64,000 nt of DNA, from NCBI GenBank assembly GCA_964456445.1, contig CAYWBI010000001.1, positions 49,593-113,592 of the forward strand, given 5' to 3'. This document shows positions 3,622-58,186 of the stretch, in pieces. A model generated the notes under the pieces. It saw only the letters and a program-made list of their open reading frames with translations, searched no databases and had not been told where the DNA came from. Every line of letters starts with the position of its first letter. Within the stretch, counting starts at the first letter, position 1. A program made the translations under genes and the position numbers. Origin of the DNA: an uncultured Calditrichaceae bacterium. GTDB lineage: Bacteria; Calditrichota; Calditrichia; Calditrichales; J004.

Positions 3622-3955
3622 TTTTCCTCCGTAATCGGGATTTATTTAGATAAATCACAAATTTACAATTGGTTATCGGGCATATTTGTGATATGCTTCA
3701 AAAGTTGGAATTAAATTCTATAAATAAAAACAGATGAGCTTAATGTAAGCATTTTAAAATTGGAATGAAATATGATTGAAGGATTTTTTACAATGGGGAA
3801 TCTTAAAGCCATAGCGCTGTTCGCACAGCGGCACTACGGAAGATCGGGGACTAATTTACATCACCGGGATTCATCTAAAGGTGTTCCCGGGTAACGATGC
3901 CGAATACGTGGCAAATAGCAAAAGCCAACTCCTGTTTTCCCCACTTCCGTTCGCC

Positions 3956-5224: not shown

Positions 5225-6229
5225 TCAACTCCAGTCTTCATGTTTGGATGCACGTGTCATCAGATCTACCATGGCCTGGTGCGGTGATTTACCATCAAAA
5301 AGCGTATGATAAATCTGTTTGGTAATCGGCATTTCCACATGGTGTTTTTGGGCCAGCTCATAGGCGGAAAGCGTCGTTTTGACCCCTTCGGCCACCATTA
5401 CCATTTCATCCAGGATATCCTGTAAATTCCGGCCTTTACCTATTTGCTCGCCTACATAGCGGTTCCGCGAATGCTGGCTCATACAGGTCACAATAAGATC
5501 GCCCATGCCGCTAAGACCCGCAAAGGTATCGCTATGCGCGCCAAGCTCTACTCCCATACGGTTGATCTCCACCAGACCACGGGTTATCAAAGCCGCCTTG
5601 GTGTTGTCGCCAAATCCGGCGCCATCGCAAATACCGGCCGCCAGGGCGATGATGTTTTTTAAGGCCCCTCCAAGCTCTACACCTATCACATCCCGATTGA
5701 CATAAACCCGAAAATATTTATTCATAAAAATATCCTGCACCACCCGGGCGGAGTCAATGTTTTGCGAGGCCGATACGATTGCGGTGGGGATTTTACGCGC
5801 AACTTCCTCGGCATGGCTTGGCCCGGACAGGACGACTATTTTCTCCGCTGAAATACCGCCTGCTTCCGCCAGCACTTCGGATATGCGCATATATGTTTTA
5901 TTTTCAATGCCTTTTGATACGGTTACAAAAATAGCATCCGGGTTGTCAAGATGTGGGCGGAGTTTTTTTATAACGTCACGTGTAACCTGGGAAGGCACGG
6001 CGGAAATGATTACTTGTGCCCCGCTGATGGAGGCCGTAAGGTCTGTTGTGAAGTTCAAACCATCCGGGATGGGTATTTTGGGCAGGTATTTTTCGTTTTC
6101 CTGTTTTGTTCTCACCGATTCAACGACAAAGGCGTCCCGGGTCCAACATGTTACCTTATGGCCATTTTCATTTAAAACCAATGCCAGCGCCGTACCCCAG
6201 CTTCCTGAACCGATCATTGCAATTTTCAT
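5225..6229 (-). CDS. gpsA: NAD(P)H-dependent glycerol-3-phosphate dehydrogenase
   Basis: N-terminal Rossmann motif MKIAMIGSGSWGTALA and the GALKNIIALAAG motif. It is adjacent to plsY, as in many bacteria. Confidence 0.9.
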   Translation of the reverse strand: MKIAMIGSGSWGTALALVLNENGHKVTCWTRDAFVVESVRTKQENEKYLPKIPIPDGLNFTTDLTASISGAQVIISAVPSQVTRDVIKKLRPHLDNPDAIFVTVSKGIENKTYMRISEVLAEAGGISAEKIVVLSGPSHAEEVARKIPTAIVSASQNIDSARVVQDIFMNKYFRVYVNRDVIGVELGGALKNIIALAAGICDGAGFGDNTKAALITRGLVEINRMGVELGAHSDTFAGLSGMGDLIVTCMSQHSRNRYVGEQIGKGRNLQDILDEMVMVAEGVKTTLSAYELAQKHHVEMPITKQIYHTLFDGKSPHQAMVDLMTRASKHEDWS

Positions 6230-27083: not shown

Positions 27084-27845
27084 TTGCCAGCATTAGCTAT
27101 TATTTATGAGCATGAGGATGTGCTCGAAGATTTAAATCTTGTGTTTAGGGAATTATCCGGATGGGATATTTATTGTTTTAATTCGTTAATCGGGGGGATA
27201 AGCGATTTCAATATCAGCGCACGTGAGTATGAGATAAGTTTTATAATAGTCACTACGTTGTTGGGAAACGGGATTTCAAACTCTCTTTCCCAAATCCATT
27301 CAAAATTTCCATATATTAAAATACTTTATTATGCCCATTCCCTGCAAAGCGGGGTATTTGAGCAATTTGAGTCATGTTCCATCAGGCATTGCGCTGTTGG
27401 TCAAAACAGACATGATTCATTGATAAAGCTGCTTGCGGAATTAGATGCAAATCATTGGAGAAGGATCCCATATGATTTATTTGGAATTAAATCTGATTTT
27501 TTACCGCCGAGGGCGAAACGTATTTTAAGATATCTTGAGAATATGCCGATACGCAAATGTTCCGTCGAAGAAATATCCGGGTTAATACGGATATCACAAA
27601 GTCATTTTCGTAAGGAATTTAGGACTTATTTTGGAATGAATTTTCGTCATTTTAAACAATTGCTAATAGGCCACTATGAGGAGCGGCTTTTGTTTGATGA
27701 AAATCTTCGTCCCGGACAAATTTTCGCTTTGCTCGACTATAAAAATTTATCCGCGTTCAGCCGATCGTTTCATCACCGTCATGGGAAAACCTGGCAGGAA
27801 TTAAATAGGGCCAATATGAATAAAAAGGATAGGGTCACATTGTAG
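27084..27845 (+). CDS. AraC-family transcriptional regulator with an N-terminal receiver-like (probably pseudo-receiver) domain
   Basis: The C-terminal double HTH (ISGLIRISQSHFRKEFRTYFGMNFRHFKQ...LLDYKNLSAFSRSFHHRHGKTWQE) fits AraC/XylS. The N-terminal ~120 aa has a beta-alpha pattern, but the acidic pocket positions read YEHED and IIVTTLL. TTG start. Confidence 0.8.
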   Translation: MPALAIIYEHEDVLEDLNLVFRELSGWDIYCFNSLIGGISDFNISAREYEISFIIVTTLLGNGISNSLSQIHSKFPYIKILYYAHSLQSGVFEQFESCSIRHCAVGQNRHDSLIKLLAELDANHWRRIPYDLFGIKSDFLPPRAKRILRYLENMPIRKCSVEEISGLIRISQSHFRKEFRTYFGMNFRHFKQLLIGHYEERLLFDENLRPGQIFALLDYKNLSAFSRSFHHRHGKTWQELNRANMNKKDRVTL

Positions 27846-39836: not shown

Positions 39837-39940
39837 AAATGGCCAGAACCATGCGAAGGATTTTACAAAGATGAAAAGAGATATGTAATAACGCTGAAGA
39901 GCGGTACATTATAACTACAGAGAGTGTAAATTGAATTCTT

Positions 39941-39963
39941 AAGGGCTTGGCTACCGGGCCCTT
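39941..39963 (+). terminator. Weak hairpin (terminator/attenuator-like) between megasynthase genes 1 and 2
   Basis: AAGGGC-(11 nt)-GCCCTT followed by TTACGCGTTTTATT. The U-tract is interrupted. Confidence 0.25.
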
Positions 39964-39998
39964 TTACGCGTTTTATTAACAGGATTAATTTTAGAAAA

Positions 39999-42900
39999 AT
40001 GTCTGAAATCAACGAAGAACTGGATATTGCGGTAATCGGTATGGCCGGACGTTTTCCCGGTGCTGATGATATAAATGAATTTTGGGAAAAATTAAAAGCA
40101 GGTGTGGAACTGATCAGGCACTTCAGCGGTGAAGAACTTATCGAAGCAGGTGTTGACCCAAAATTAGTGCAAAATCCAAGATATGTAAAAGCCCGTGGTA
40201 TCATAAACGATGCGGATGGTTTTGATGCTTATTTTTTCGATTACTCGCCTCATGAGGCGGAGATCATTGATCCGCAACATCGTCTGTTTCTTGAAAAATG
40301 CTGGGAGGCCATGGAACATGCCGGTTACAATGCGGAAGACTATGATGGGCTGATCGGGCTTTTTGGCGGTGTCAGTATGAACACGAATTTGTATGGCTAC
40401 CTTGCCGATCGTGGCAAACCGCTGGATGCGGCGGAAGGCTATCAGTTGGCCATTGGCAATGACAAAGATTTTTTAACTACCCGGGTTTCCTATAAAATGA
40501 ACCTGCGCGGGCCCAGTCTGGATGTCCAGACCGCCTGTTCCACCTCGATGGTGGCCATCACCGTTGCCTGTCAGAACCTGTTAAATTATAGTTGCGACAT
40601 GGCCCTGGCCGGTGGCGTATCGATTTCGATGCCACAAGAACAGGGTTATTTGTATCAGGAAGGAATGATCCTCTCGCCTGACGGACATTGCCGTGCCTTC
40701 GATGCTAAGGCCCGCGGAACGGTAAGCGGCAACGGCGCCGGTGTCGTGCTGTTAAAACGCATCTCCGATGCTCTGACAGCTGGGGATACCATTCATGCGA
40801 TTATAAAGGGCACTTCTTTTAACAACGATGGCGCCCGGCGTGTGGGATATACCGCACCGGGTGTTGACGGCCAGGCAGATGTCATTGACGCCGCACAGTT
40901 CATGGCCGAAATCGATCCACGAACCATTTCTTATGTGGAAACCCACGGTACGGGTACGGAAATGGGAGACCCCATCGAGGTAAGCGCCCTTAAGCAGGTA
41001 TTTTCCCAGGCTACCCAGGACAAACAATTTTGCGCGCTTGGATCTGTAAAAAGCAATATCGGGCATCTTGACGCCGCTTCCGGCGTGGCCGGTTTTATAA
41101 AAACTGTCCTGGCATTGGAAAACAAACAAATCCCGCCCAGTCTGCATTATGAGAAACCCAATCCACAAATTGATTTTGAGAATTCACCTTTTTATGTGAA
41201 CGATAAACTACGAAACTGGAGTTCTGACGGTCCCCGCCGGGCCGGGGTAAGCTCTTTTGGCATTGGCGGTACAAACGTCCATGTGGTTTTGCAGGAGGCG
41301 CCAAAGTTAGAAAAAACAAATCATATTCCTTGCCCGAATTTGTTTGTGCTTTCCGCTAAAACGCCGAGCGCTTTGGATACAGCCAGCCATAATTTAGCCG
41401 ATCATTTTAAAAATCATGACGGTATAGATCCCGCGGATGCTGCCTTTACGCTTTTTAACGGCCGTAAGCATTTTAGTCAGCGTCGTTTTGTTGTGGCTTC
41501 TTCCATCAGCGATGCGCAAACAGTGTTGGAAGGTAAGGAACCCAAACGACTGTTGGGTATGGGACATAAAAAAAATCCATCGCAGCCCAATGTAGTTTTT
41601 CTTTTTTCCGGTCAGGGGGCGCAATATGTGAACATGGGCAAGGGGCTTTATGAAAACGAAACGGTTTTTAAAAAGGTGATCGACAATTGTTCGAAAATTC
41701 TGGAACCCCATTTGGGACAAAAACTAACCGACATTTTATATCCGTCTCCTGGCGCGGAAGAGACGGCTACGCGCATACTAACAGAAACACGCTTTACCCA
41801 GCCCGCCCTGTTTGTAATTGAGCTGGCCATTGCCAGGCTTTGGGAACATTACGGTATCAAAGCCACTGCTATGGCGGGTCATTCCATCGGCGAATATGTG
41901 GCCGCACATCTTGCGGGCGTTTTTAGCTTAGACAGCGTCTTAAAAGTAGTCGCGGAACGTGGTCGAATGATGCAATCCATGCCCGGGGGCCGTATGCTCA
42001 GCATCGATATTGACGCCCATGAAATCGATTCCTGGTTAATACCGGGGATATCCCTTGCAACTGTAAATACAAAGGGCGCCTGTGTGCTCTCCGGCCCGGA
42101 AGATAAAATTACCGAACTGGAACACAAGGTTATGGAAAAAGGCATCGGCTGTCGTCGATTGCACACTTCCCATGCTTTCCATTCTGAAATGATGGGGCCC
42201 ATACTTGAGGCTTTTAAGCACGTGGTGGAAAGTGAAACGCTTTCCAAGCCCACACATGATTATTTATCCAATGTGAGCGGTGACTGGATCAGCGAAGAAG
42301 AAGCCACAAGCCCGAATTATTATGCACGTCATCTGCGTGGTACGGTGCGGTTTGCAGATAACCTGGATCACCTTTTGGAAGATCCACAAGTCATATTGCT
42401 GGAAGTCGGCCCCGGTAAAACGCTGGCTTCCCTGGCTAAAAGGCATAGCCGCTATGGCCTCACACACACAGCCCTGGCCTCTTTGCGCCATCCGCAAGAC
42501 CCCATCGAGGACCGCATACAGTTCCTTACAACTGCCGGTCGTTTATGGCTGGCCGGAGCGAAGTTAAAGGCATCAGCCCTGTTCCCTGACGAAAAATATC
42601 ATCGTTTGCCTTTACCAACCTATCCTTTTGAACGCAAGCGTTACTGGCTGCATAAAACATCTGGCGGGAACACAAAACCAGCCCCGGCCGACGACAAACA
42701 AAATATGGTTACCGATTGGTTTTATACACCTGTCTGGAAAAAAACTTTTGCCTCTCTGCCGAAGCGTCAGGAAGCAGATAAAACACTTTTTGTTTTTTAC
42801 ACTGGAACCCACGAACCTGCATTTACCAAAAAATTGCCATCTGCCAATTATGTTGGCACCGGAAAGGAATTCCGGCAGGAGAACGATAATCACATATTGA

Positions 42901-44498
42901 TAAACCCTCAAAACGAATCGGATTATCGACGTCTTTTGAAGCCGTTAGCTGCCGCAGATATAATTTTCGTTGCCAGTAAAAACGAGAGCGTTACGGAATT
43001 GTTCAACCGCCTGACAACATTAGGAAAAGCGCTTATCCTTCATCCGCAACATGATAAAATGCATTTGACCGTTGTGAGCCACTCTCAATTTAAGTTGATC
43101 GGAACGGAACGTGCCCATTTGGAACATGGCCTTCTGAATGGATTGCTAAAAACATTGATCATAGAATGCCCGGGTTTAATGGCGCGCCTTTTAGACTTAC
43201 CGCAAACGCTGATTGAGGGAGAAATCGGTCACCTGCAAAAAATGCTTTTATCGCCGGATTGGAAAGGGACATACGCCCTGCGTCATGGGCGTTTTTGGCA
43301 GGAAGATTATCAAAAAATTCAACCTGTTGTTACGGCTGCCTTAACTGAGAAGCGGACATCGGTACTTATAACCGGTGGTAGCGGGAACTTAGGTGCTTTA
43401 TTCGTTGAACATCTCGCATCAAAAGGTACAATGGATTTTACACTTGTCTCGCGGTCTTCTTTTCCCAGGCAGGATCAGTGGAATGATCTCAGCGGGCCCT
43501 TGGCGGAAAAGGCGGCAATCTTTGCAACGGCCATGGCAAATGGCTCAACCATTACATTTGAACAGGCCGATGTATCTTCTGAACCGGAAATGCATAAGGT
43601 ATTCGAGACCGTCAATAACCGCCTGGGTAAGATCGATATTGTCATCCATGCTGCGGGTTTAATAGGCGAAGCGGCCTTCCGGCCCATACCGGAAATAGAT
43701 GCGGAGTCCGTAAATGCACAATTTAAAGCAAAGGTGGAAGGTTTTCTGGTTTTGCAGCGCCTGGCCCGAAAATTTAAACCAAAGCTTTGCCTTGCTCAGT
43801 CATCCCTGGCAGCTGTTCTTGGCGGTCTGGGATTTGGGGCTTATGCGGCGGCAAATGCCTTTTTGTCCAATGCCTGCACGGGACTGGAAGAAGACATTCC
43901 ATGGCGTGTTATCGATTGGGATGGTTTAAATTTTAGTACGGATTCAAAACAAAGTAGCTCGCAAAAATACATTTTAAACCGCACGGAAGCGCTGAGCTGC
44001 ATGGATTATATCTTTTCCGATAGCATGCCGGAACGGATCATTATTTCCAGTGGGAACCTGAAAAATCGCCTGGATGCAGTTGAAAATAACCGACAGGCGG
44101 AAACGCCCAACCCAAAATCAAACGAAGAATTATATGACCGGCCCAATTTGCCGACGCCTTATGTGGCAGCGGAAAGCGATCTGCAAAAAGAAATATTAGA
44201 AGTATGGCAAAAATTGTTGGGCATCGGTAAAATCGGTATCCATGACGACTTTTTTGATCTTGGCGGTAATTCCCTGATGGGCACACAGCTTATCTCACGC
44301 ATGCGTGATCGTTTTAAGGTGGACGTGCCCGTGAAGACCCTGTTTGAAAACCCGACCATCGCCGGTGTGGCCGAACAAATCGACCAGGCCCGCTCAAGCG
44401 CGGGAAAACAGGAAGATATGCTGGAGGACATGCTGAATAAAGTAGAAAACATGAGCGCAGAGGAGATTGCCCGGCTTTTAAATAAAACGAAAGAGTGA
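39999..44498 (+). CDS. Type I PKS: KS-AT-(psiKR)-KR-ACP
   Basis: 1499 aa. KS: DIAVIGMAGRFPGA, QTACSTSMV, HGTGTEMGD and GHLDAASG. AT: GHSIGEYVAAH plus HTSHAFHS (the HAFH motif is usually malonyl-CoA). psiKR entry DWFYTPVW, with no HxxxGxxxxP DH motif. KR: VLITGGSGNLG...GAYAAANAF. Carrier: FFDLGGNSLMGTQ. Confidence 0.95.
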   Translation: MSEINEELDIAVIGMAGRFPGADDINEFWEKLKAGVELIRHFSGEELIEAGVDPKLVQNPRYVKARGIINDADGFDAYFFDYSPHEAEIIDPQHRLFLEKCWEAMEHAGYNAEDYDGLIGLFGGVSMNTNLYGYLADRGKPLDAAEGYQLAIGNDKDFLTTRVSYKMNLRGPSLDVQTACSTSMVAITVACQNLLNYSCDMALAGGVSISMPQEQGYLYQEGMILSPDGHCRAFDAKARGTVSGNGAGVVLLKRISDALTAGDTIHAIIKGTSFNNDGARRVGYTAPGVDGQADVIDAAQFMAEIDPRTISYVETHGTGTEMGDPIEVSALKQVFSQATQDKQFCALGSVKSNIGHLDAASGVAGFIKTVLALENKQIPPSLHYEKPNPQIDFENSPFYVNDKLRNWSSDGPRRAGVSSFGIGGTNVHVVLQEAPKLEKTNHIPCPNLFVLSAKTPSALDTASHNLADHFKNHDGIDPADAAFTLFNGRKHFSQRRFVVASSISDAQTVLEGKEPKRLLGMGHKKNPSQPNVVFLFSGQGAQYVNMGKGLYENETVFKKVIDNCSKILEPHLGQKLTDILYPSPGAEETATRILTETRFTQPALFVIELAIARLWEHYGIKATAMAGHSIGEYVAAHLAGVFSLDSVLKVVAERGRMMQSMPGGRMLSIDIDAHEIDSWLIPGISLATVNTKGACVLSGPEDKITELEHKVMEKGIGCRRLHTSHAFHSEMMGPILEAFKHVVESETLSKPTHDYLSNVSGDWISEEEATSPNYYARHLRGTVRFADNLDHLLEDPQVILLEVGPGKTLASLAKRHSRYGLTHTALASLRHPQDPIEDRIQFLTTAGRLWLAGAKLKASALFPDEKYHRLPLPTYPFERKRYWLHKTSGGNTKPAPADDKQNMVTDWFYTPVWKKTFASLPKRQEADKTLFVFYTGTHEPAFTKKLPSANYVGTGKEFRQENDNHILINPQNESDYRRLLKPLAAADIIFVASKNESVTELFNRLTTLGKALILHPQHDKMHLTVVSHSQFKLIGTERAHLEHGLLNGLLKTLIIECPGLMARLLDLPQTLIEGEIGHLQKMLLSPDWKGTYALRHGRFWQEDYQKIQPVVTAALTEKRTSVLITGGSGNLGALFVEHLASKGTMDFTLVSRSSFPRQDQWNDLSGPLAEKAAIFATAMANGSTITFEQADVSSEPEMHKVFETVNNRLGKIDIVIHAAGLIGEAAFRPIPEIDAESVNAQFKAKVEGFLVLQRLARKFKPKLCLAQSSLAAVLGGLGFGAYAAANAFLSNACTGLEEDIPWRVIDWDGLNFSTDSKQSSSQKYILNRTEALSCMDYIFSDSMPERIIISSGNLKNRLDAVENNRQAETPNPKSNEELYDRPNLPTPYVAAESDLQKEILEVWQKLLGIGKIGIHDDFFDLGGNSLMGTQLISRMRDRFKVDVPVKTLFENPTIAGVAEQIDQARSSAGKQEDMLEDMLNKVENMSAEEIARLLNKTKE

Positions 44499-44501
44499 TA
44501 C

Positions 44502-44543
44502 TAATTAACAATTAACAATTAATAATTAACAATTAATAATTAA
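44502..44543. repeat. Left arm: six tandem heptamers YAATTAA (TAATTAA CAATTAA CAATTAA TAATTAA CAATTAA TAATTAA)
   Basis: Read directly. It begins 4 nt after the PKS stop (44496-44498). Positions 44502-44527 are the perfect reverse complement of 44916-44941. Confidence 0.9.
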
Positions 44544-44564
44544 AAAAATCGGTGTATAGGAACC

Positions 44565-44924
44565 TTGGAAGTGAAAGAAAATATTATTCTAGATAAAAGT
44601 TTTAGCTTTGCGGTCCGGATTGTAAAACTATCGCAGTTTCTTACCACCGAAAAGAGAGAGTTTAGTATTTCTCAACAAATATTAAAGTCAGGTACTTCAA
44701 TTGGTGCAAATATTGAAGAAGCAATCGGTGGACAAAGTACAAAGGATTTCATATCTAAATTTTCTATCGCATATAAGGAAGCACGTGAAACGCATTACTG
44801 GTTAAGATTATTACATGAAACTGGTTTTATAGATTCAAAGCTGTTCAATTCTATTTTTGATGATTGTGTCGAAATAATAAAACTACTTACTTCGATTCTG
44901 AAAACAACAAAAAACAATTATTAA
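44565..44924 (+). CDS. Four-helix-bundle protein (23S rRNA intervening-sequence protein / Avd-like family)
   Basis: 119 aa. The segments LDKSFSFAVRIVKL, ILKSGTSIGANIEEA, SKFSIAYKEARETHYWLRLL match my memory of the family consensus (R.SIGANI.EG....S..DF...L.IA.GS..E....L). The start is TTG 44565 or GTG 44571. Confidence 0.8.
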   Translation: MEVKENIILDKSFSFAVRIVKLSQFLTTEKREFSISQQILKSGTSIGANIEEAIGGQSTKDFISKFSIAYKEARETHYWLRLLHETGFIDSKLFNSIFDDCVEIIKLLTSILKTTKNNY

Positions 44925-44948
44925 TTGTTAATTGTTAATTATTAATTT
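44916..44948. repeat. Right arm: inverted copy of the heptamer array (TTAATTR units)
   Basis: AATTATTAATTGTTAATTGTTAATTATTAATTT. It contains the stop codon of the four-helix-bundle gene and ends 16 nt before the next NRPS start codon. Confidence 0.9.
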
Positions 44949-44964
44949 ATGCATCTGAGGTTCA

Positions 44965-47900
44965 ATGAGTTCCGTCTATCAACAAATTGCCAGCTTGCCG
45001 CCCGACAAACGGGCCGTGCTGGAACTGATGTTAAAAAAACAGGGTGTGGATTTAACTCAAATGCCTATCTTGCCCGAAGCGGGCCCGCGGGACAGCTTTC
45101 CCCTTTCCTTCGCCCAGCAACGCATGTGGTTTTTGGACCAACTGGAACCGGGCAATCCATTGTATAACATTTGCTCGCCGGTACACATTCGCGGCAAGCT
45201 GAATGAAGATGCCTTTCGACGTACCTTTGAACTGATTGTGGAAAAACATGAAACGCTGCGTACGACCTTTTTTAAAGAGGGCGCTGAAGCACGGCAAAAA
45301 ATCCATCCGCATACGGAATTGGACTTTGAAACGATTGAGCTGGATAGCGAAACTGATTTACAACAAAAAATAGTCAGTGAAGCAAATATTTCCTTTAATC
45401 TGCAAAAACGTCTGCCAATGCGCATCCGTCTTTTTAAACTCGGAGCGGAGGAACATGTCGCCGTCCTGACCCTGCATCATATTGTTTCCGACAACTGGTC
45501 AACCGGTGTACTTATTCGTGAGTTTATGAATTTTTATCCCGTCCTCGCTCAAGGCGGAGAGGTAACGATCCAACCGCTGCGCGTACAATACGCGGATTTT
45601 GCTGCCTGGCAGCGTAAATGGCTTTCCGGCAAAACATTGGAAAAACAGCTTCTTTATTGGGAAGAAAAACTGAGCGGTTTACCCGCGGCGCTAGACCTGC
45701 CAACGGATTTCCCCCGTCCGGCCTATCAAACCCACAATGGCGATTTTTTGACTTTTGAGCTGGGCATGACATTGAGCAATTCTTTAAAAAAGTTAGCCGC
45801 ACAATACGATGTTACCCTGTTCATGGCGTTGATGGCCGCTTTTCAAATCCTGATGCTGCATTACAGCCGCCAGGAAGATTTTGCGGTGGGTACGCCCATC
45901 GCCAACCGTAACCGGGCAGAAATCGAGCCATTGATCGGCTTTTTTATCAACACACTGGTTATCCGTTCCGATACCATTGACAATCCCACTGTAAGCACCC
46001 TGCTGAAAAAAATTAAAGAAACCATGATCGGCGCCTACGCCCATCAGGACCTGCCCTTCGAAATGCTGGTGGAAAAGCTGGACCCGGAACGCGATATGAG
46101 CCAATCGCCGCTGTTTCAAACCATGTTGGTTTTTAACAATGCGCCTGTCGATAAACTTGAGCTGCCGAATGCTCAATTAGAGCTCATCGGGTTTGAAAAC
46201 AAGACCAGTAAATTTGATCTGATATTCAATTTTATGGAAAGCGAAAGCGGGCTTGAAGGAAAAGTGGAATTTAATACCGATCTGTTCAAACCCGGGACCG
46301 TCCGTGCAATGATACGCCATTTTACCCGCGTTGTTGAAGCAATGAGCAGCGGACCGGATAAGGCGATTGGAGATATTGCCTTACTCAACACTGATGAGAA
46401 GGAACATATTCTAAAAACCCTAAGGGCCCAGTTCAGGGAAGTTAAGGCATCCAAATTATTACTGCCCTTGATTTTGGAGCAATGTCGATCGGGTGCGGAC
46501 AAAATTGCCCTGAGCAATACCGACGGGGACATGACTTATGCCGATTTAAAATCACATATCAGTGTGGTTCAAAAAGTTTTACAGGATAAAAAAATTCAAC
46601 CCGGCGAAGTGGTTGCAGTGGTAGCCCGCCGCACACCTGCCGCCGTTGCAATCCTACTGGGGGTGATGGCCCACGGAGCGGTTTATCTGCCCATCGATCC
46701 CGCATATCCCGGTGAGCGTCTGGAATTTATGTTAAAGGACAGTGGCGCCCGCTGTGTATTGATGGAGGCCGGATGGAAGCCATCTGCAGCGGAGTTTCTT
46801 GTAAGCAGCCGGTTACCGGTGTATGCGGTAGATGGCGCGCCGGACAGACTACAGAACATGGAAGTTTATCAAAATGAAGATGCTCCGGCCTATCTTATCT
46901 ACACCTCCGGTTCCAGTGGCAAGCCCAAGGGAGTATTGGTCAGTCACCGCGCCATTGCCGACCATACCGTTGATATGTGCGCTTATTTCGGCCTTACGGA
47001 AAACGACCGGTCTTTGCAGTTTGCCGCGATGAACTTTGACGCGGCCCTGGAACAAATCCTCTCTCCTTTATGCGCCGGGGCAACAATCGTTTTGCGCGAT
47101 GAAGATATTTGGCCGGTTGAAAAATTCGCCGATAAAATAAACGACATGGGTTTAACCGTGGTAAATCCGACCACGGCTTATTGGAATCAGTGGTGTGCCC
47201 ATCTTGCCGAAAACGGGTCCACAAACTGCCCCACCCTGCGTCTTGTAATTTCCGGTGGAGACGCTATGACGCCAACCGCCCTAAAGCACTGGAGGCAATC
47301 CGCACTAAAAGGGGTTCGTTTGATAAATGCTTACGGGCCGACGGAAACGGTTATAACATCCACTTGTTTCGATGTGCCGGACGAAAGCCTTGTTTTGGAA
47401 CATAACCGATCGCTCCCCATTGGATTACCCAACGCCAACCGCACGGCTTATGTTTTGGACGAAAGGCAACGGCTCTTGCCTTTCGGATTGCCCGGCGAAC
47501 TTTGTATTGCTGGAAAAAATCTGGCGTCGGGTTATCACAATCGTCCGCAGGAGGAAGCACTGGCCTTTGTAGATGATCCTTTTACGCCGGGTCAAAAAAT
47601 GTACCGCACAGGCGATAAGGTCCGTTTACATGAAAATGGTATCATTGAATTTTTGGGCCGCATCGATGCCCAGGTAAAAATACGCGGGTTTCGCATTGAA
47701 CCGGGCGAGGTGGAAAATATTTTGTCGCAACATCCGGATTTGGAAACCGCATTGATCGCCATTAAAACCGATGTGATGGGCGAGAAACAAGTGGTGGCCT
47801 ATTTCCGGCCCAAGGCCGGAGCGGTGGTTTCGATTCCGGCTTTACGGACTTTTATGAAAAATCAATTACCGCCCTATATGCTGCCCGCGGCATTTATCCA

Positions 47901-48321
47901 GTTAGAGACAGTGCCAATGTTGCCGGGCGGAAAAGTAAACCGTCGTGCCCTGCCCGTTCCCGAGGATTTGCGCGGACAACTAAGCGCCGAATATGTGGCG
48001 CCACGTACGGAAACTGAAGAAAAGCTTGCCGCCATTGTGGCCCAGGTATTGCGTATCGAAAAGGTGGGCGTGTTTGATAATTTTTTTGAACTGGGCGGTC
48101 ACTCCATGCTTGGCACCCAGGTCATGAGTATGATCCGGGAACAATTTGGGGTGGAAGTACCTTTACGTGCTCTTTTTGAAAGTCCCACAGTTGATGGGAT
48201 TGCAGCCAGTCTTATGGAAGAATTGACCGGGGCCATTGACGAAAAAGAACTATCCAACTTACTCGATGATATGGATGATCTTTCCGGGGATGAATTGGAT
48301 GCCCTGCTTAACGATGATTAG
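44965..48321 (+). CDS. NRPS: C(LCL-like)-A-PCP with acidic C-terminal docking tail
   Basis: 1118 aa. C: FPLSFAQQRMWFLDQLEPGN and HHIVSDNWS. A: AYLIYTSGSSGKPKGV, NAYGPTE, GELCIAG and YRTGD. PCP: FFELGGHSMLG. Tail: DDMDDLSGDELDALLNDD. The A code read by eye is DAENIGAITK (unassigned). Confidence 0.95.
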   Translation: MSSVYQQIASLPPDKRAVLELMLKKQGVDLTQMPILPEAGPRDSFPLSFAQQRMWFLDQLEPGNPLYNICSPVHIRGKLNEDAFRRTFELIVEKHETLRTTFFKEGAEARQKIHPHTELDFETIELDSETDLQQKIVSEANISFNLQKRLPMRIRLFKLGAEEHVAVLTLHHIVSDNWSTGVLIREFMNFYPVLAQGGEVTIQPLRVQYADFAAWQRKWLSGKTLEKQLLYWEEKLSGLPAALDLPTDFPRPAYQTHNGDFLTFELGMTLSNSLKKLAAQYDVTLFMALMAAFQILMLHYSRQEDFAVGTPIANRNRAEIEPLIGFFINTLVIRSDTIDNPTVSTLLKKIKETMIGAYAHQDLPFEMLVEKLDPERDMSQSPLFQTMLVFNNAPVDKLELPNAQLELIGFENKTSKFDLIFNFMESESGLEGKVEFNTDLFKPGTVRAMIRHFTRVVEAMSSGPDKAIGDIALLNTDEKEHILKTLRAQFREVKASKLLLPLILEQCRSGADKIALSNTDGDMTYADLKSHISVVQKVLQDKKIQPGEVVAVVARRTPAAVAILLGVMAHGAVYLPIDPAYPGERLEFMLKDSGARCVLMEAGWKPSAAEFLVSSRLPVYAVDGAPDRLQNMEVYQNEDAPAYLIYTSGSSGKPKGVLVSHRAIADHTVDMCAYFGLTENDRSLQFAAMNFDAALEQILSPLCAGATIVLRDEDIWPVEKFADKINDMGLTVVNPTTAYWNQWCAHLAENGSTNCPTLRLVISGGDAMTPTALKHWRQSALKGVRLINAYGPTETVITSTCFDVPDESLVLEHNRSLPIGLPNANRTAYVLDERQRLLPFGLPGELCIAGKNLASGYHNRPQEEALAFVDDPFTPGQKMYRTGDKVRLHENGIIEFLGRIDAQVKIRGFRIEPGEVENILSQHPDLETALIAIKTDVMGEKQVVAYFRPKAGAVVSIPALRTFMKNQLPPYMLPAAFIQLETVPMLPGGKVNRRALPVPEDLRGQLSAEYVAPRTETEEKLAAIVAQVLRIEKVGVFDNFFELGGHSMLGTQVMSMIREQFGVEVPLRALFESPTVDGIAASLMEELTGAIDEKELSNLLDDMDDLSGDELDALLNDD

Positions 48322-54300: not shown

Positions 54301-57239
54301 ACCCCGGTCATCCTGTGGACCGTACAACCTTTATGCTTCAGGATTCCGGTGCGCGGACAGTGATAACCACCACCAATCTTGCAGATAAATTTGAAAACCA
54401 GGAGATAAGAATCATTTTCATGGATAGCGCAGATGTTGATAAACAACCATCCAGCGACCCGACGATTGACTTTGACCTTGATCAACTGGCCTATATGATC
54501 TACACCTCCGGTTCTACCGGCAAGCCCAAAGGGACCCTGCTTACACACCGCGGTTTCTTAAATCGCCTGCAATGGATGCAACAGGCCTACCCTCTGGGGC
54601 CGGGCGAAACGGTCCTGCAGAAAACACCTTTTAGTTTTGATGTTTCTGTTTGGGAATTCTTTTGGCCTTTTATGTTTGGGGCACGTTTGGTGGTTGCCCG
54701 CGACGGCGGACACAAGGATACAGCCTATCTCACGGACTTGATCCGACGGGAAAATGTTACGACCATGCATTTTGTACCGCCCATGTTAAAGGTTTTTCTG
54801 GAAGAGCGTAATGCCGGGGCATGTACAAGCCTGAAAAATGTGGTCTGTTCCGGTGAAGCCCTTCCCTATGCCCTGAGCCGGGAATTTTATAAAACCCTGC
54901 CCACCGCCCGTTTGCATAACCTTTACGGCCCTACGGAAGCTTCTGTTGATGTGAGTCATTATACCTGTCCTGTTGAACGGGAAGACGGTAAATTACCCAT
55001 TGGACGGCCAATTGCCAATACTCTGTTGTATGTTTTGAATCCTGCTTTAAAACCGGTGCCTGTTGGTGTAAGGGGGGAATTGCATATTGGAGGCGTGCAA
55101 CTGGCGCGCGGCTATGCCAACCGCCCGGATCTTACCGCGGAAAAATTTATTCCCGATCCCTTTGGGAAGGTACCCGGCGCCCGGTTATATAAAACCGGCG
55201 ATGTGTGCCGCTTTCTTCCAACTGGTGAAATCGAGTATATAGGACGTATGGACCATCAGGTGAAAGTGCGTGGCTTCCGCATTGAATTGGGTGAAATTGA
55301 ATCCGCTCTGCGTAAAGGTCCAGGCGTAGAAGATTGTACCGTACAGGTTCGTCCTTTCGGAAGTCAAGAAAAGGCATTGGTTGCATATGTCGTAAGCAAG
55401 GAACAGCAGCCATCCCAGGCAACCCTAAAAGATGCGTTAAAGAAAAACCTCCCGGATTATATGGTACCTTCTGCCTGGCTTTTTATAGATAAAATTCCAC
55501 TCACGGCAAATGGAAAAATTGATCGGGAATCCTTGCCAAATCCTGCCGACCTTGGACGGAACCAATTGGAAAATGCCTATCTTGCACCCCGCAATGATCG
55601 GGAAAAGCAGCTGTCCGATTTGTGGATGAAAGTGTTGAAGCTGGATAAAGTGGGCGTTAGGGACAACTTTTTTGAATTGGGTGGTGATTCCATTGTGGGG
55701 ATTCAACTTATTTCCGCCTCGGCCAGGGATGGACTCACTTTTACACCCCGGGAACTATTTGAGAATCCGACCATCGAAGGGCTGGCGACTATTGCCCGTG
55801 AAGGGGTGGCGATCCATGCCGAGCAGCAACCAATCACAGGGGAAGTAGAATTAACCCCGATTCTGCTCTGGTTTAAACAACTCGATCTGCCGCAACGCGC
55901 ACACTGGAACCAATCCATAATGCTTAAAAGCCAAGCCGCCCTCAAGCCGGATATTCTCCAAGGAGTGGCCAACACGTTATATGCCCATCACGATATGCTG
56001 CGCTTATATTGGGATGATGGAAGCCCCATGATAGCAACACAGACGACGGAGGCACCCCTTTTTGAATATCAGGATTTGCGCCGCTTAAACCTGGATGAGC
56101 AGAAATCCAGCATGAAAAAAATTGTTGAAAAAACCCAAAGCGGACATGATCTGCAAAGGGGGCCCTTGTTTAAAATCCTTTATTTCTCCCTGGACAGTGC
56201 TATTGGTGACCGTTTATTTATTAGCATCCATCATACCGTTATTGATGCGGTTTCGTGGCGGGTGCTGCTGGAGGATTTGCAACTGGCTTATGCACGGTTT
56301 AGCGAAGAAAAACCGCTAACTTTACCGGCCAAGACCACTTCCTTTGCTTACTATGCGAAACGTTTAAAGGAATATGCCCGCACCACGGATTGGGGAAAGG
56401 AAATGAAATTTTGGCAAAATTTTATCGGGCAAGAGGCAGCTTCGTTAAAGATGTTGAAAACGGGTAAAAATTTGCAAAAAGACCGCATACATATTGACAT
56501 TAAATTGAATATAGAACAAACAGCCAACCTACAACGCGTGGTACCGGAAACCTATAATACCAGAGTTGTCGAAAATTTATTGACAGCGTTATTCATCGCC
56601 TGGAAAAACCTTAAGGGCACAAACAGCTTACTGATCGATATGGAAGGGCATGGACGCGAAGCTTTATTTGAAGAAGTTGACCTGGCCCGCACCGTGGGAT
56701 GGTTTACATCGCTTTTTCCCGTACATTTGCATACATCAGAGTCGGACTTGGGTGAAGTGATCAAGTCCCTTAAAGAAGAAATACGTGCTATTCCTGAGAA
56801 TGGGATCAATTATGGATTGTTGAGGTTTTTGGCGCCAGAGACCGTCCGTAAGGAGATAGAAAAATTGCCCAGCGCCGGGATATTGTTTAATTACCTGGGA
56901 CAGTTTGAACAAGATGAAGCCATGAAAAGCCGCTTTGAAATGAAACCGGGGGAAACCGGCGCCGACATTGGTGCTGAAAACAGAAACAGCCATCTGCTTG
57001 AAATTACATCCAGTATTGTTAATGGTGTTTTTAACATAACCTTTAATTTTTGTCCCGATAGCGTGAGTGAAAGTTTTATTGTTCAATTTGCCGATAAAAC
57101 CGTCCAGGCTTTAGATCAAATAATCGAGCACAGCTTAAGCGGCGAAAGCGGAGGATATACACCTTCTGACTTTTCAGCGATGGAGGTTGACCAGGAAGAG
57201 TTAGATGATATTTTATCCGAATTGGATGATTTGGAATGA
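48345..57239 (+). CDS. NRPS: C-A(Ser)-PCP-ST-C-A(Ser)-PCP-E
   Basis: 2964 aa. C1 HHIVADGWS. A1 AYMIYTSGSTGKPKGT, code DVWHVSLVDK. PCP1 FFDIGGNSL (Ser codon 51465-51467). Sulfotransferase region (see separate feature). C2 HHIITDGWS (53085). A2 code DVWHVSLVDK. PCP2 FFELGGDSIVG (the GGDSI form typical before E domains). E domain HHTVIDAVSWRVL (56229). Confidence 0.95.
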   Translation: MSDISAKLKNLSPEQRELLLKKLQARKKTAGDGQDTIAPRPDPDRFPVSYAQERLWFFDQLAPGSSLYNISAAVKFKGPLETDLLEQSINAVVQRHEILQVYFETEKGAPLQKKAGQASIGLSVEDIGDLPLGELAAIEAQTPFDLSRAPLLRARLIKVDEQAHALLLTIHHIVADGWSMGVFINETARYYRALQGDGQKPAPLKIQYFDYAWWQKNKSDKAKMARQLDFWADELKGMPTLLELPFDRSREGVQSFRGRHHIFQISPKTTAALRALSRKSGVTTFITLLAAFQTLLYRYSNQNDFGLGIPIANRNKKELEALIGFFVNTLVIRAEIDGSLSFSDFLKQVKTRAFKAYDNQDVPFEQVVEKVQPQRNNQIAPLFQVMFELQGDALSGLNFGDLELKTIDFETGTAKFDLLLIMEEGRETLKGVLEYNADLFTAETVERMMRHFAYLLDQIAQAPDTHLDKIGLLPPEEEQNILLRWNQTAADYPKSPFIHQYTAQFALSNPDHPALLSAQGTFTYRQFEERGNQLAHYLVSHGIGRDDRVGVCMDRSAEMVIALHGILKAGAAYVPFDPRHPAERRRFMLDDSGARLILTQAHLLDLFKGSSIHAVVLDASFALIESLPVTPPVVDIDGDQLAYMIYTSGSTGKPKGTFLAHKSILNRLIWMQESYGLTMKDVVLQKTPFSFDVSVWEFFWPFMQGATLAIAREEGHKDSAYLTETVRQYGVTTLHFVPPMLKVFLEDRDSKKCISLKRVVCSGEALPYALSEQFYKTLPNAVLYNLYGPTEAAVDVTAYTCPRDRDDKKLPIGSPIANTQIYILDPALNPVPVGVGGELYIAGVQLARGYANRPGLTAEKFIADPYAKSPGSRMYKTGDLCRYLPGGEIEYLGRIDHQVKLRGFRIELGEIEAVLRGHPAIKDCIVLVRGTDMEKAIIAWYIPEEGQSPVPEDLRQYIIRHMPEYMAPNFFIPLDAFPLTSNGKLDRRGLPDVNLKKDRPKTRFVSPRNRLEAHLAELWREILGVKTLSMYDNFFDIGGNSLKAAVLINRLQEEVDKKLHVGMVFQAPRIAEFAMFAQEYFTEEVLKNFGDSAVGAVDDSFKVMAISAESKIKNADIQAFRQIVFPLQKRKKEPTHLTKNKPAIFILSPPRSGSTLLRIMLAGNPVLFSPPELDLLSFNTIGERRRFFEEQGLPLWLEATTHAIKEIQHTSLAEAERIMRDIEDKDITVKDFYHLLQNGLKQKILVDKTPSYAIDPAALQRAEEDFEQPLYVHLARHPYAMIYSFIEAKLDKNFFKFPHKFTRQQLAELIWLNSHQNILDFLKDIPDERHVFLRFEDLLFKPEAEIRRLTEFLGVPFTADMLKPYQGRKMTEGLKQGSQMVGDFKFYLHQNINNKVAGKWRGFHKHDFLCEQSEILAGNFGYETHTRSKAIAENTDIQKIEQAPRQTYMPLSFAQQRLWFIDQLEPGSTQYNVPGAIYINGNVDARLLEKSIALLVERHEILRTTFHTIEGKGMQKIHAEYQPVLIQHDLRTLPTEQKDVAAQGLIDTLSKTVFKLNELPILKIMLVRLKENEYIFALVAHHIITDGWSNGIIIREASHYYDLLIEEKSVVTPALALQYVDIAVWQREWINGNQAGQQLNFWKKELKGAPPLLDIPTDFPRKANNAPVGKRLYFELGEAISQKVRTCCNRQGTTSFVVLMAAFQTLMHHYAAQQEVLIGTPVAGRTQQAMEGLIGFFVNTIVQRTQFKPGATFRDILDQVRDKAARILNHQDYPFEKLLEALNVQRSLEHAPLFQVMFSMQEDDICAFSKNFATRPYRTDSGTAKFDLLLELFDSNSIRGAFEYNTSLFRAETIKRLKDHFERLLIILTTQMDIPIAEINFIGPHEEELLTHKWNDTALDFPNGQTVPQQIMEQARKRPGAPALTFEGHTFLYAEFNQKVNQWAHLLVENGVQREQRVAVCLERSDNMVLALNAVMRCGGVYVPLDPGHPVDRTTFMLQDSGARTVITTTNLADKFENQEIRIIFMDSADVDKQPSSDPTIDFDLDQLAYMIYTSGSTGKPKGTLLTHRGFLNRLQWMQQAYPLGPGETVLQKTPFSFDVSVWEFFWPFMFGARLVVARDGGHKDTAYLTDLIRRENVTTMHFVPPMLKVFLEERNAGACTSLKNVVCSGEALPYALSREFYKTLPTARLHNLYGPTEASVDVSHYTCPVEREDGKLPIGRPIANTLLYVLNPALKPVPVGVRGELHIGGVQLARGYANRPDLTAEKFIPDPFGKVPGARLYKTGDVCRFLPTGEIEYIGRMDHQVKVRGFRIELGEIESALRKGPGVEDCTVQVRPFGSQEKALVAYVVSKEQQPSQATLKDALKKNLPDYMVPSAWLFIDKIPLTANGKIDRESLPNPADLGRNQLENAYLAPRNDREKQLSDLWMKVLKLDKVGVRDNFFELGGDSIVGIQLISASARDGLTFTPRELFENPTIEGLATIAREGVAIHAEQQPITGEVELTPILLWFKQLDLPQRAHWNQSIMLKSQAALKPDILQGVANTLYAHHDMLRLYWDDGSPMIATQTTEAPLFEYQDLRRLNLDEQKSSMKKIVEKTQSGHDLQRGPLFKILYFSLDSAIGDRLFISIHHTVIDAVSWRVLLEDLQLAYARFSEEKPLTLPAKTTSFAYYAKRLKEYARTTDWGKEMKFWQNFIGQEAASLKMLKTGKNLQKDRIHIDIKLNIEQTANLQRVVPETYNTRVVENLLTALFIAWKNLKGTNSLLIDMEGHGREALFEEVDLARTVGWFTSLFPVHLHTSESDLGEVIKSLKEEIRAIPENGINYGLLRFLAPETVRKEIEKLPSAGILFNYLGQFEQDEAMKSRFEMKPGETGADIGAENRNSHLLEITSSIVNGVFNITFNFCPDSVSESFIVQFADKTVQALDQIIEHSLSGESGGYTPSDFSAMEVDQEELDDILSELDDLE
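51740..52620 (+). other. Embedded sulfotransferase domain (CurM/Ols 'activating ST'-like) between PCP1 and C2
   Basis: KPAIFILSPPRSGSTLLRIMLAGNPVLFSPPELDLLSFNT (PAPS 5'-phosphosulfate-binding loop PRSGST at 51789-51809), LVDKTPSYA, YVHLARHPYAMIYSF and GDFKFYLHQNINNKVAGKWR. These four blocks parallel the CurM ST domain blocks as I remember them. Borders are approximate. Confidence 0.8.
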
Positions 57240-58186
57240 AAACAGGAAAAAATATGGCAAGACCGGTTTTAATTTCAGGATTGCAACGCTCAGGTACAAC
57301 CTGGACGGCCCGCATGTTAACCCTTTCGGATGAGATGTTCTATGTTTTGGAACCTTTTAATATCCTGCGTGACCCCATTCATCTGATTGGAGCGGGCACC
57401 AACTTCCCCTATTTCCAGGAGGTTGATTCGGAACGATATGTCAAAATAAGAAGCGGACTCGGCTTGAGTTTCACAAAGGATGAATTAAGGGTTTTTATGA
57501 AACAATCCCCTTCTCCCAAGTACCATCTGTACCATATAGTACGCTACCTTAGCTTAAACAGGCGTTTGAATAAAGGGATGAAACCGGTGATACAGGACCC
57601 TTTCGCTGTTTTTATGGCACCCTGGCTCAGTCATAATTTGGGAATTTTACCCCTGTTTCTGTTCCGCCACCCCGCTGCCTATATCAACAGCATGAAACGT
57701 ATGAAGTGGGGTTTTAATTTTGCCTGGCTTGCCGATCAGGAAGAATTGATGGATGAATACTTATCTGATTTTAGCGATGATATACGTAAATGGGCCGGGG
57801 AAGAATTCATTCCTTTTTCTATTGAAACACAATGTCTGGTCTGGAATATATTTACCAGCGTTATTTTACGTTACTCCAAGGAACACAGCAACTGGCTTTT
57901 TTATCGACATGAAGATTTATCGATGAATCCCATGACGTTGTTTTATAAAATATATGCAGAAATTGGAATTGACATGAATCAAACAATTATGCGGAAAATT
58001 GAAAAATTTACTGGCAGCGGCAATCCTGCCACGGCACGCGATGGTAAAATGCACAGTTTAAAACGCAATAGCAGGGAAAATATAAAAAATTGGCAAAAGC
58101 AATTAAGCGTTGATGAAATCAATCAAATACATCATTTAACCGCAGCTTTTTCCAATCCACTTTACTCCGAGGACGAGTGGCATTAA
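57236..58186 (+). CDS. Stand-alone sulfotransferase
   Basis: 316 aa with PSB-loop-like ISGLQRSGTTWTARML, a mid-protein FRHPAAYINS block and a C-terminal KRNSRENIKNWQKQLS block (cf. RKG..GDWK..F of PAPS-dependent STs). The ATG overlaps the upstream TGA (ATGA, 57236-57239). Confidence 0.75.
   Translation: MKTGKNMARPVLISGLQRSGTTWTARMLTLSDEMFYVLEPFNILRDPIHLIGAGTNFPYFQEVDSERYVKIRSGLGLSFTKDELRVFMKQSPSPKYHLYHIVRYLSLNRRLNKGMKPVIQDPFAVFMAPWLSHNLGILPLFLFRHPAAYINSMKRMKWGFNFAWLADQEELMDEYLSDFSDDIRKWAGEEFIPFSIETQCLVWNIFTSVILRYSKEHSNWLFYRHEDLSMNPMTLFYKIYAEIGIDMNQTIMRKIEKFTGSGNPATARDGKMHSLKRNSRENIKNWQKQLSVDEINQIHHLTAAFSNPLYSEDEWH

Follow-up and report, generated by a model that had tools for sequence, protein, structure and literature searches.

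A four-helix-bundle gene framed by inverted heptamer arrays between polyketide synthase and peptide synthetase genes: a probable intervening-sequence-type cassette

What is a small gene for a four-helix-bundle (4HB) protein doing between two consecutive megasynthase genes, enclosed by two arrays of a seven-nucleotide repeat that are inverted copies of each other? The question is raised by a 64,000-nt stretch of a contig from an uncultured Calditrichaceae bacterium (the window, meaning here the whole stretch that was analysed), where this arrangement occupies the spacer between a type I polyketide synthase (PKS) gene and a nonribosomal peptide synthetase (NRPS) gene. An earlier interpretation, made from the letters of the window without database searches (the sequence-only reading), had proposed that the spacer holds a cassette resembling the intervening sequences (IVSs) of 23S rRNA genes. 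We conclude that the spacer is very probably the site of an inserted, horizontally acquired IVS-type cassette. The parts of the locus to which the argument refers are the following.

39999–44498, plus strand: upstream host gene, a type I PKS of 1499 aa, taken from the list of open reading frames (ORFs), with domains known from its orthologues.
44502–44543, plus strand: left arm, a tandem array of about 5.9 heptamers (AATTAAY), placed by Tandem Repeats Finder at 44503–44543.
44558–44561, plus strand: AGGA, a Shine–Dalgarno-like motif 9 nt 5′ of the cassette GTG, read from the sequence and with a putative role.
44571–44924, plus strand: 4HB gene of 117 aa (PF05635/TIGR02436), from profile matches and the N-termini of homologues.
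44916–44947, plus strand: right arm, about 4.6 heptamers (RTTAATT) found by Tandem Repeats Finder, an inverted copy of the left arm.
44502–44947, plus strand: whole cassette, arms plus ORF, 446 bp, delimited by empty orthologous junctions, GC content and the homology limits of other cassettes.
44957–44960, plus strand: GAGG, the apparently retained Shine–Dalgarno-like motif of the NRPS gene, 4 nt 5′ of its ATG, read from the sequence.
44965–48321, plus strand: downstream host gene, an NRPS module of 1118 aa with C-A-T domains.

The cassette is an insertion, and the clearest evidence for this comes from clusters that do not have it. Relatives of the NRPS protein at 61–68% identity are found in clusters with a constant gene order, namely a ~3960-aa hybrid synthase, a ~1460-aa PKS, a ~1116-aa NRPS and a ~2967-aa NRPS with a sulfotransferase domain; another relative, in a Calditrichaeota metagenome-assembled genome (MAG), has 50% identity. 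In four orthologous clusters (L087–L090), where the NRPS is 67–68% identical, the junction between the PKS and NRPS genes measures 46, 46, 38 and 23 nt, respectively, and holds neither a 4HB gene nor heptamers. The native-type spacer left outside the arms in the window amounts to 3 nt on the left, between the TGA stop of the PKS gene (44496–44498) and the arm, and 17 nt on the right, including the GAGG, which together comes close to the length of an empty site. The composition is also foreign: the spacer has 28% GC vs 48–49% in the flanking genes, and the GC content at third codon positions (GC3) is 0.23 in the cassette ORF vs 0.48 in the PKS and 0.52 in the NRPS gene. The comparison with orthologous clusters, which the sequence-only reading had itself suggested, thus bears out its claim of an insertion, as the same gene order occurs there without the cassette. 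Its supporting remark that the other junctions between NRPS/ST genes of the cluster are short holds for 48321/48345 (23 nt) and 57239/57236 (−4); the 39836/39999 junction measures 162 nt. The identity of the host genes rests on the ketoacyl-synt, Acyl_transf_1, KR and PP-binding domains of PKS orthologues in L087, L089 and L091, and on the Condensation, AMP-binding and PP-binding domains recorded on an identical NRPS protein in the Logan contig L001.

Two other spacers in these clusters deserve a note. In a fifth cluster, L091, the PKS–NRPS junction is 241 nt long and is filled by a different hairpin repeat (5760–5990), in which an imperfect palindrome of ~66 nt occurs about three times; this palindrome is built from short tandem units (ACACNAAG-like, with a period of ~8) and their inverse. 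Hairpin repeats seem to be drawn to the PKS–NRPS junction. In the window, the first megasynthase and the PKS gene are separated by a spacer of 162 nt (39837–39998), compared with 5–6 nt in L087, L089 and L091. Neither heptamer arrays nor a 4HB gene nor a consensus terminator is present in it; by eye, one can discern a GC hairpin (AAGGGC...GCCCTT) with a T-rich stretch after it.

Positions 44502–44527 (TAATTAACAATTAACAATTAATAATT) are the exact reverse complement of 44916–44941, over 26 nt, just as the sequence-only reading had it. The arms are not strictly AT-only, as had been said, since the 26-mer has two C and its partner two G. With one mismatch allowed, the inverted repeat reaches 29 nt at 97% (44499–44527 with 44916–44944), and other registers give 32 nt at 91–94%; the shift between registers is possible since either arm consists of heptamers in tandem. 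The arms are inverted repeats, as proposed, but not the plain ones that had been described. The left arm (44502–44543) has stop codons in all six frames, and the final three ORF codons fall within the right arm, which provides the TAA stop (44922–44924). All seven matches to the arm motif in the window fall within the two arms, vs 0.08 expected, and none of 100 shuffles gave seven. The flanking inverted-repeat score is 26, vs a maximum of 9 among 30 shuffles of the flanks, and the arms are the sole local inverted repeat of at least 24 nt within the window. No further period-7 array like the arms was found in the 64 kb, which argues that the arms arrived together with the gene. Each arm also contains an inward-facing sigma-70-like match (44512–44540 on the plus strand and 44945–44917 on the minus strand; for example TTAACA-17-AATAAT, 10 of 12 positions). 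These could drive the gene or an antisense RNA; we have set them aside as probably a by-product of the AT-rich repeat.

The predicted protein is readily classified. It matches Pfam PF05635 at 4e-29 (101.3 bits; curated cut-off 33.8) and TIGR02436 at 1e-32 (112.6 bits; curated cut-off 24), and its sequence contains the blocks that are invariant in the family, SGTSIGANIEEA and AYKEARETHYW. The closest solved relative is PDB 2RLD (E = 1.9e-36 with the single sequence, 1.2e-45 with a profile), and there is a further match to PDB 2GSC (1.1e-3). These matches place the protein, as had been recognised earlier, in the 4HB family of the 23S rRNA IVSs, and it is a PF05635/TIGR02436 member distantly related to Avd; the Pfam bAvd-like model gives weak matches in 7 of 23 homologues. 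Searches of PADLOC and PHROGs did not return the cassette protein as a member. Translation is likely to start at GTG 44571, giving 117 aa; gene call P0001 in the database and the MKEN... N-terminal ends of homologues both agree with this start. The 119 aa of the sequence-only reading would require the less likely alternative start, TTG 44565. Proteins of the 4HB family have many invariant polar residues. Both PDB entries, 2RLD and 2GSC, hold five chains, and the protein in 2GSC, Xcc0516, has been described as a pentamer (PMC4990558).

The same arrangement recurs with homologues of this gene far beyond the window. The first three homologues inspected each lie between co-directional operon genes (lysine aminomutase alpha/beta, SWIM/DUF5691 and lactamase_B/Rieske, respectively) and are flanked by inverted heptamer arrays, with a different unit in each case. 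A scan of one genome per species yielded 80 homologous loci at 55–67% identity, from Bacteroidota, Ignavibacteria, Lentisphaerota, Gammaproteobacteria, Patescibacteria, Chloroflexota, Desulfobacterota, Gemmatimonadota, Acidobacteriota, Latescibacterota and Calditrichota, with more than 10 phyla represented overall. For 74 of 87 homologous genes the flanking inverted repeat scores above all 30 shuffles. An inverted-repeat score of at least 15 is reached by 76% of 83 4HB genes, whereas among 356 other ORFs of these loci the proportion is 0.8% (Fisher p = 2e-54). Tandem arrays in the 4HB loci number 142 at period 7 vs 1–20 for each of the periods 5, 6 and 8–11, and their median length over both arms is 4.6 units, with a right-arm mode of 5. 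The consensus unit of the family is A-A-T-T-A-N-K, and the stop codon falls within the right array in 39 of 74 genes. Arms pair better with their own partner than with arms from other loci, both by pairing score (mean 19 vs 11) and by duplex energy (p = 8e-15). The plan of the class is thus an array of ~32 nt, (AATTANN)n, a short leader, an ORF of ~117–122 aa and an inverted array, (NNTAATT)n, that often provides the stop.

The cassettes of this class depend on a co-directional gene upstream. The upstream neighbour is co-directional for 78 of 81 4HB genes, where the background same-strand adjacency is 80%, and the gap to it has a median of 51 nt, which is mostly filled by the arm, so that the cassette has no space for its own promoter. 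Two loci carry something more in the leader: at ~2590–2660 in L052 and ~4330–4396 in L067, a conserved terminator-like hairpin (GGCATTTACTA...TAGTAAATGCC followed by TTTTTT) stands between the left arm and the 4HB start. Such a hairpin would halt read-through, which is at odds with simple hitch-hiking on the upstream transcript.

In distant members of the family (45–50% identity) the units are unrelated, yet a period of 7 nt and inverted symmetry are preserved. On a Nostoc plasmid, for example, the arms read CGTAATT/AATTACG, with the polarity flipped. On the Anabaena cylindrica plasmid pANACY.01 (L212, 2489–2836), cas2 and cas1 have a 4HB gene with AGTAAAA arrays between them, on the opposite strand. 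An extreme, GC-richer form of the arms was found on a Treponema saccharophilum replicon, where ~37 tandem GAAAGNG heptamers and then their inverse precede the 4HB gene (L214, 2150–2480), and more inverse units follow it (2850–2950). Viral sources contributed little: there were 2 matches in 2.9 million viral contigs, both with arms that keep period and symmetry in other units, and 2 weak matches in phage records. Cassette carriers in culture include Flavobacterium maritimum SYSU M80005 (L056), Fodinibius salsisoli (L029), Sphingobacterium sp. SGG-5 (L031), Tenacibaculum sp. IB213877 (L035), Nostoc flagelliforme CCNUN1 (L213) and Anabaena cylindrica PCC 7122 (L212).

Comparison of closely related members indicates that the cassette behaves as a unit. 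Proteins 91–93% identical to each other are found in differing contexts or taxa, at two Flavobacterium sites (L061 and L086), in Flavobacterium and Lentimicrobium (L056/L071) and in Latescibacterota and Gemmatimonadota (L065/L068). When the first two of these pairs were aligned at the nucleotide level, the similarity was seen to span from the outer edge of the left array to the outer edge of the right. In one case the aligned right arm is identical at 33 of 33 positions, and its ORF only at ~87%. Array length shifts fast, as shown by L021, with at least 17 units vs ~5 in a relative 91% identical. One locus stands apart: in a Candidatus Thiodiazotropha MAG (L080, 4938–6144), three tandem 4HB genes with identical matched protein sequence share one inverted heptamer pair, which could be a real amplification or an assembly effect.

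If the DNA-level evidence establishes a unit that has been inserted, the next question is what it might do in the transcript. In the predicted RNA fold the arms are paired around the ORF in both the minimum-energy and the centroid structures, so that the looping out of the ORF envisaged by the sequence-only reading is what the models predict as well; the duplex of the isolated arms is calculated at −27 kcal/mol. As we picture it, the cassette would be transcribed by read-through from the host operon, from the PKS side, and its arms would pair in the transcript as a mostly A·U duplex of 26–32 bp with the ORF looped out. RNase III could then cut the duplex, as it does in the homologous rRNA elements, which would free a monocistronic 4HB message and part the PKS from the NRPS transcript, the latter presumably retaining its own ribosome-binding site. 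By analogy with the rRNA elements, we would put the RNase III step close to evenly balanced, with a slight tilt towards doubt. The reading taken whole, that is, a promoter-less, horizontally acquired IVS-type cassette including RNase III processing, we hold to be moderately probable.

Several results weigh against this reading, and they concern both the RNA step and mobility. For the complete fold of 496 nt, the z-score is only −1.5. Arm mismatches show no RNA-type bias, with 65 G·U vs 75 A·C (p = 0.45), in a test of low power that cannot separate RNA from DNA; absent a G·U excess, selection on complementarity could just as well act on DNA hairpins. With the stop codon inside the right arm, a terminating ribosome would melt the stem, so that pairing and translation would compete. 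As to mobility, no target-site duplication is present at the window locus, and duplications exceed shuffles in just 3 of 62 loci, although those of 2–4 nt would escape such a comparison. The window ORF scan revealed no transposase or other mobility machinery nearby, and the window holds only one copy of the cassette.

The arm motif by itself provides a further difficulty. A metagenome scan for (AATTAAY)x3.5 recovered at least 120 loci (L092–L211); among the 120 listed, a 4HB gene is present at 3, and an inverted partner was found for ~12 of 133 arrays. The solo (AATTAAY)n arrays are all intergenic, ~11 nt 3′ of the stop of the upstream gene, and occur in either orientation. Since most arrays are solo, period-7 arrays must also be a generic intergenic feature, and the arm motif alone fails to mark the element. 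For the same reason, the recurrence of the arms elsewhere is in itself no evidence for mobility. The scan, which was meant to reveal further copies and empty sites, mostly recovered arrays lacking the gene.

Heptamer repeats without an ORF are found close to the cassettes, too. ORF-less inverted pairs near cassettes have loops of 11–136 nt, and some are built from the unit of the local cassette (L058, L080, L077 and L070). Only 11 of 42 other arrays in the 4HB loci match the local arm type, so a genome-specific pairing of protein and repeat is partial at best. Two Thiodiazotropha genomes have ORF-less hairpins at successive operon junctions, at 2206–2325, 3638–3744 and 7262–7390 in L058 and at 2237–2366, 3658–3768 and 7963–8077 in L080. 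Their design is conserved across both genomes and consists of outer inverted heptamers (AGTTTTG or AATTTTG) around a conserved GC-rich inner palindrome (GTGCGCTTTGCGCAC ... GTGAGCGAAGCGAACAC).

How well, then, do other explanations account for these data? One possibility is that the arms act at the DNA level, as terminal inverted repeats or hairpins that serve mobility, perhaps through a single-stranded hairpin intermediate, with the enzyme supplied in trans or by the 4HB protein itself and with the RNA stem incidental. This would fit the lack of a G·U excess over A·C in the arms, the break in homology of related cassettes at the outer ends of the arms and the many invariant polar residues of the protein. 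It would also fit the ORF-less inverted hairpins at neighbouring junctions, some with the unusual unit of the local cassette. The sole long target duplication among the 62 loci, at L014, is relevant here as well: a 33-nt direct duplication with one mismatch (1890–1922 and 2352–2384), comprising the 3′ end of the upstream gene with its stop, flanks the 4HB cassette and may be a trace of the insertion process. Such duplications are not general, however, and neither a transposase nor a recombinase is found nearby. The arm sequences diverge strongly between lineages, which is a poor fit to a shared enzyme acting in trans, and agreement of other arrays with the arm type of the local cassette is limited to 11 of 42. 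We know of no nuclease or recombinase activity for the 4HB fold. Overall, we consider a purely DNA-level role of the arms somewhat unlikely.

Alternatively, the arrays could belong to the host, as repeats that stabilise transcripts or couple translation in the manner of the short tandemly repeated repetitive (STRR) sequences, with the 4HB gene a resident accessory gene that is not mobile. In cyanobacteria, 7-bp hairpin repeats have been described from the spacers of operons (PMC2670836). Solo (AATTAAY)n arrays are frequent and without exception intergenic, and the 4HB loci contain many different heptamer arrays. Against this stand the absence of any other such period-7 array from the 64 kb window, the empty orthologous junctions, the GC3 of 0.23 vs ~0.5 in the neighbours, the specificity of inverted pairing for 4HB genes (76% vs 0.8%) and the near-identical cassettes in different contexts and phyla. 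Resident host arrays are, on this evidence, an improbable explanation.

A functional role of the 4HB protein in the PKS–NRPS pathway, for example as a docking, chaperone or regulatory subunit, is very unlikely; its gene is co-oriented and lies inside the operon, but it is absent from four orthologous clusters of the same gene order, and its closest relatives occupy unrelated operons (lysine aminomutase, SWIM/DUF5691 and lactamase_B/Rieske; also cas operons, PMC3936711 and L212). An assembly artefact, in the form of a chimeric join at a low-complexity repeat, is barely credible: Logan contig L001 is identical to the window but starts inside the left array, whereas an independent metagenome contig from JGI (L215) reproduces the full junction of the window, both sides included, without a difference.

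The preferred reading, an inserted IVS-type cassette, leaves room for a more speculative proposal about its protein, namely that 4HB protein and heptamer arrays are parts of a single, self-contained system in which a pentameric ring reads about five 7-nt units. TRAP offers an analogy, as a ring that reads spaced GAG triplets. Ring reading would explain why the 7-nt period and the ~4.6-unit length are kept across phyla while the unit drifts, and why ORF-less hairpins of the same unit gather at nearby operon junctions. The protein would then govern the pairing of the arms, RNase III cleavage and the translation of its own message, or it would spread hairpins as in REPIN/RAYT systems. We regard this idea as quite unlikely to be correct; if true, it would define a class of selfish elements, not recognised until now, which settle both in operon spacers and in rRNA genes.

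A single insertion is a modest finding, and the general pattern is the interesting part. We did not find inverted heptamer arrays described in the literature as a trait of the 4HB family, or cassettes of this kind in operon spacers, although coverage was incomplete and this is an absence of evidence only. ORF-bearing rRNA IVSs have been a curiosity for some 30 years; should the family pattern hold, they are a minority, resident in rRNA, of a much larger class that spans many phyla and is found mostly in the spacers of protein-coding operons. The pattern also has a bearing on annotation. Genes for a "four helix bundle protein" are listed with CRISPR-Cas and other defence loci (PMC3936711, PMC10053308), and those wedged in cas operons have been read as cas-associated (PMC3936711). 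Many of these CRISPR and defence associations may simply be hitch-hiking insertions. The cas2/cas1 case on the Anabaena plasmid (L212) illustrates how insertions could pass for cas-associated genes. In a biosynthetic cluster, such an insertion may split the PKS–NRPS transcript and shift the stoichiometry of the subunits, which is relevant to heterologous expression.

Finally, the cassette can be set beside the systems that it resembles. In REPIN/RAYT systems, a gene spreads a short repeat of which inverted copies stand on either side of it. The cassette shares with these, and with miniature inverted-repeat transposable elements (MITEs), the layout of a gene with inverted repeats that are also seen as ORF-less intergenic hairpins of the same genome, and the window locus has the terminal inverted repeats expected of a MITE or insertion sequence. 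It differs from them in having no HUH or other transposase, in its tandem heptamers that vary by lineage and in that no target-site duplication was found. Avd of the diversity-generating retroelements (DGRs) has a distantly related fold (PMC10053308), but it is the partner of a reverse transcriptase and of template and variable repeats, whereas the cassette gene stands alone in an unrelated operon. The sequence-only reading had seen neither component nearby, and we agree: no reverse transcriptase was detected among 20 ORFs of at least 150 aa scanned with Pfam, a scan that did not include ORFs 27084–27845 and 57236–58186, and the remaining long ORFs of the window were assigned as PKS/NRPS from orthologues and internal repeats. 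Nor was there a template/variable repeat pair, the direct repeats of at least 24 nt in the window being conserved NRPS/PKS domain motifs only.

Closer in appearance are the STRR or heptamer repeats of cyanobacteria, which have a period of 7, are intergenic in operons, form hairpins and vary in copy number (PMC2670836); the TAACTGA repeats of Beggiatoaceae are likewise period-7 heptamers (PMC4679880). The arms at the window locus are of this kind, as tandem and intergenic arrays for which Tandem Repeats Finder gives a period of 7 and 5.9 and 4.6 copies. STRR sequences have been described as host repeats without a gene, while the arrays of the cassettes are inverted around one gene family and travel with it.

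The closest parallel is the ORF-bearing IVS of 23S rRNA genes, known from Leptospira, Coxiella burnetii, Brucella and Xanthomonas. Like the cassette, these elements have a homologous 4HB ORF and enclosing terminal inverted repeats, which in the window are exact over 26 bp and extend imperfectly to at most 32 bp; they also lack a promoter of their own, depend on host read-through and have a sporadic distribution that suggests horizontal transfer (PMC4990558). The IVS of C. burnetii encodes a PF05635 "S23p" homologue, has a 28-bp terminal stem and contains, in its 5′ region, three to four tandem copies of the heptamer GACAGAT, a number that differs from strain to strain; the element is cleaved by recombinant RNase III in vitro midway along the stem, at the first heptamer (PMC4990558). 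The description of the cassette as IVS-like is thus upheld down to the heptamers of the stem region. Differences remain in position and in regularity. The 23S IVSs sit in helix 9, 25 or 45, whereas the cassette lies in an intergenic spacer of a protein-coding operon, between the PKS stop and the NRPS start; an Rfam search of 44300–45200 found no rRNA there and gave one chance-level match only. The arms of the cassette are longer and form a regular AATTANN array, and RNase III cutting, a fact for the IVSs, is presumed for the cassette. The outcome in 23S rRNA is a fragmented rRNA; the corresponding outcome here would be a split mRNA.

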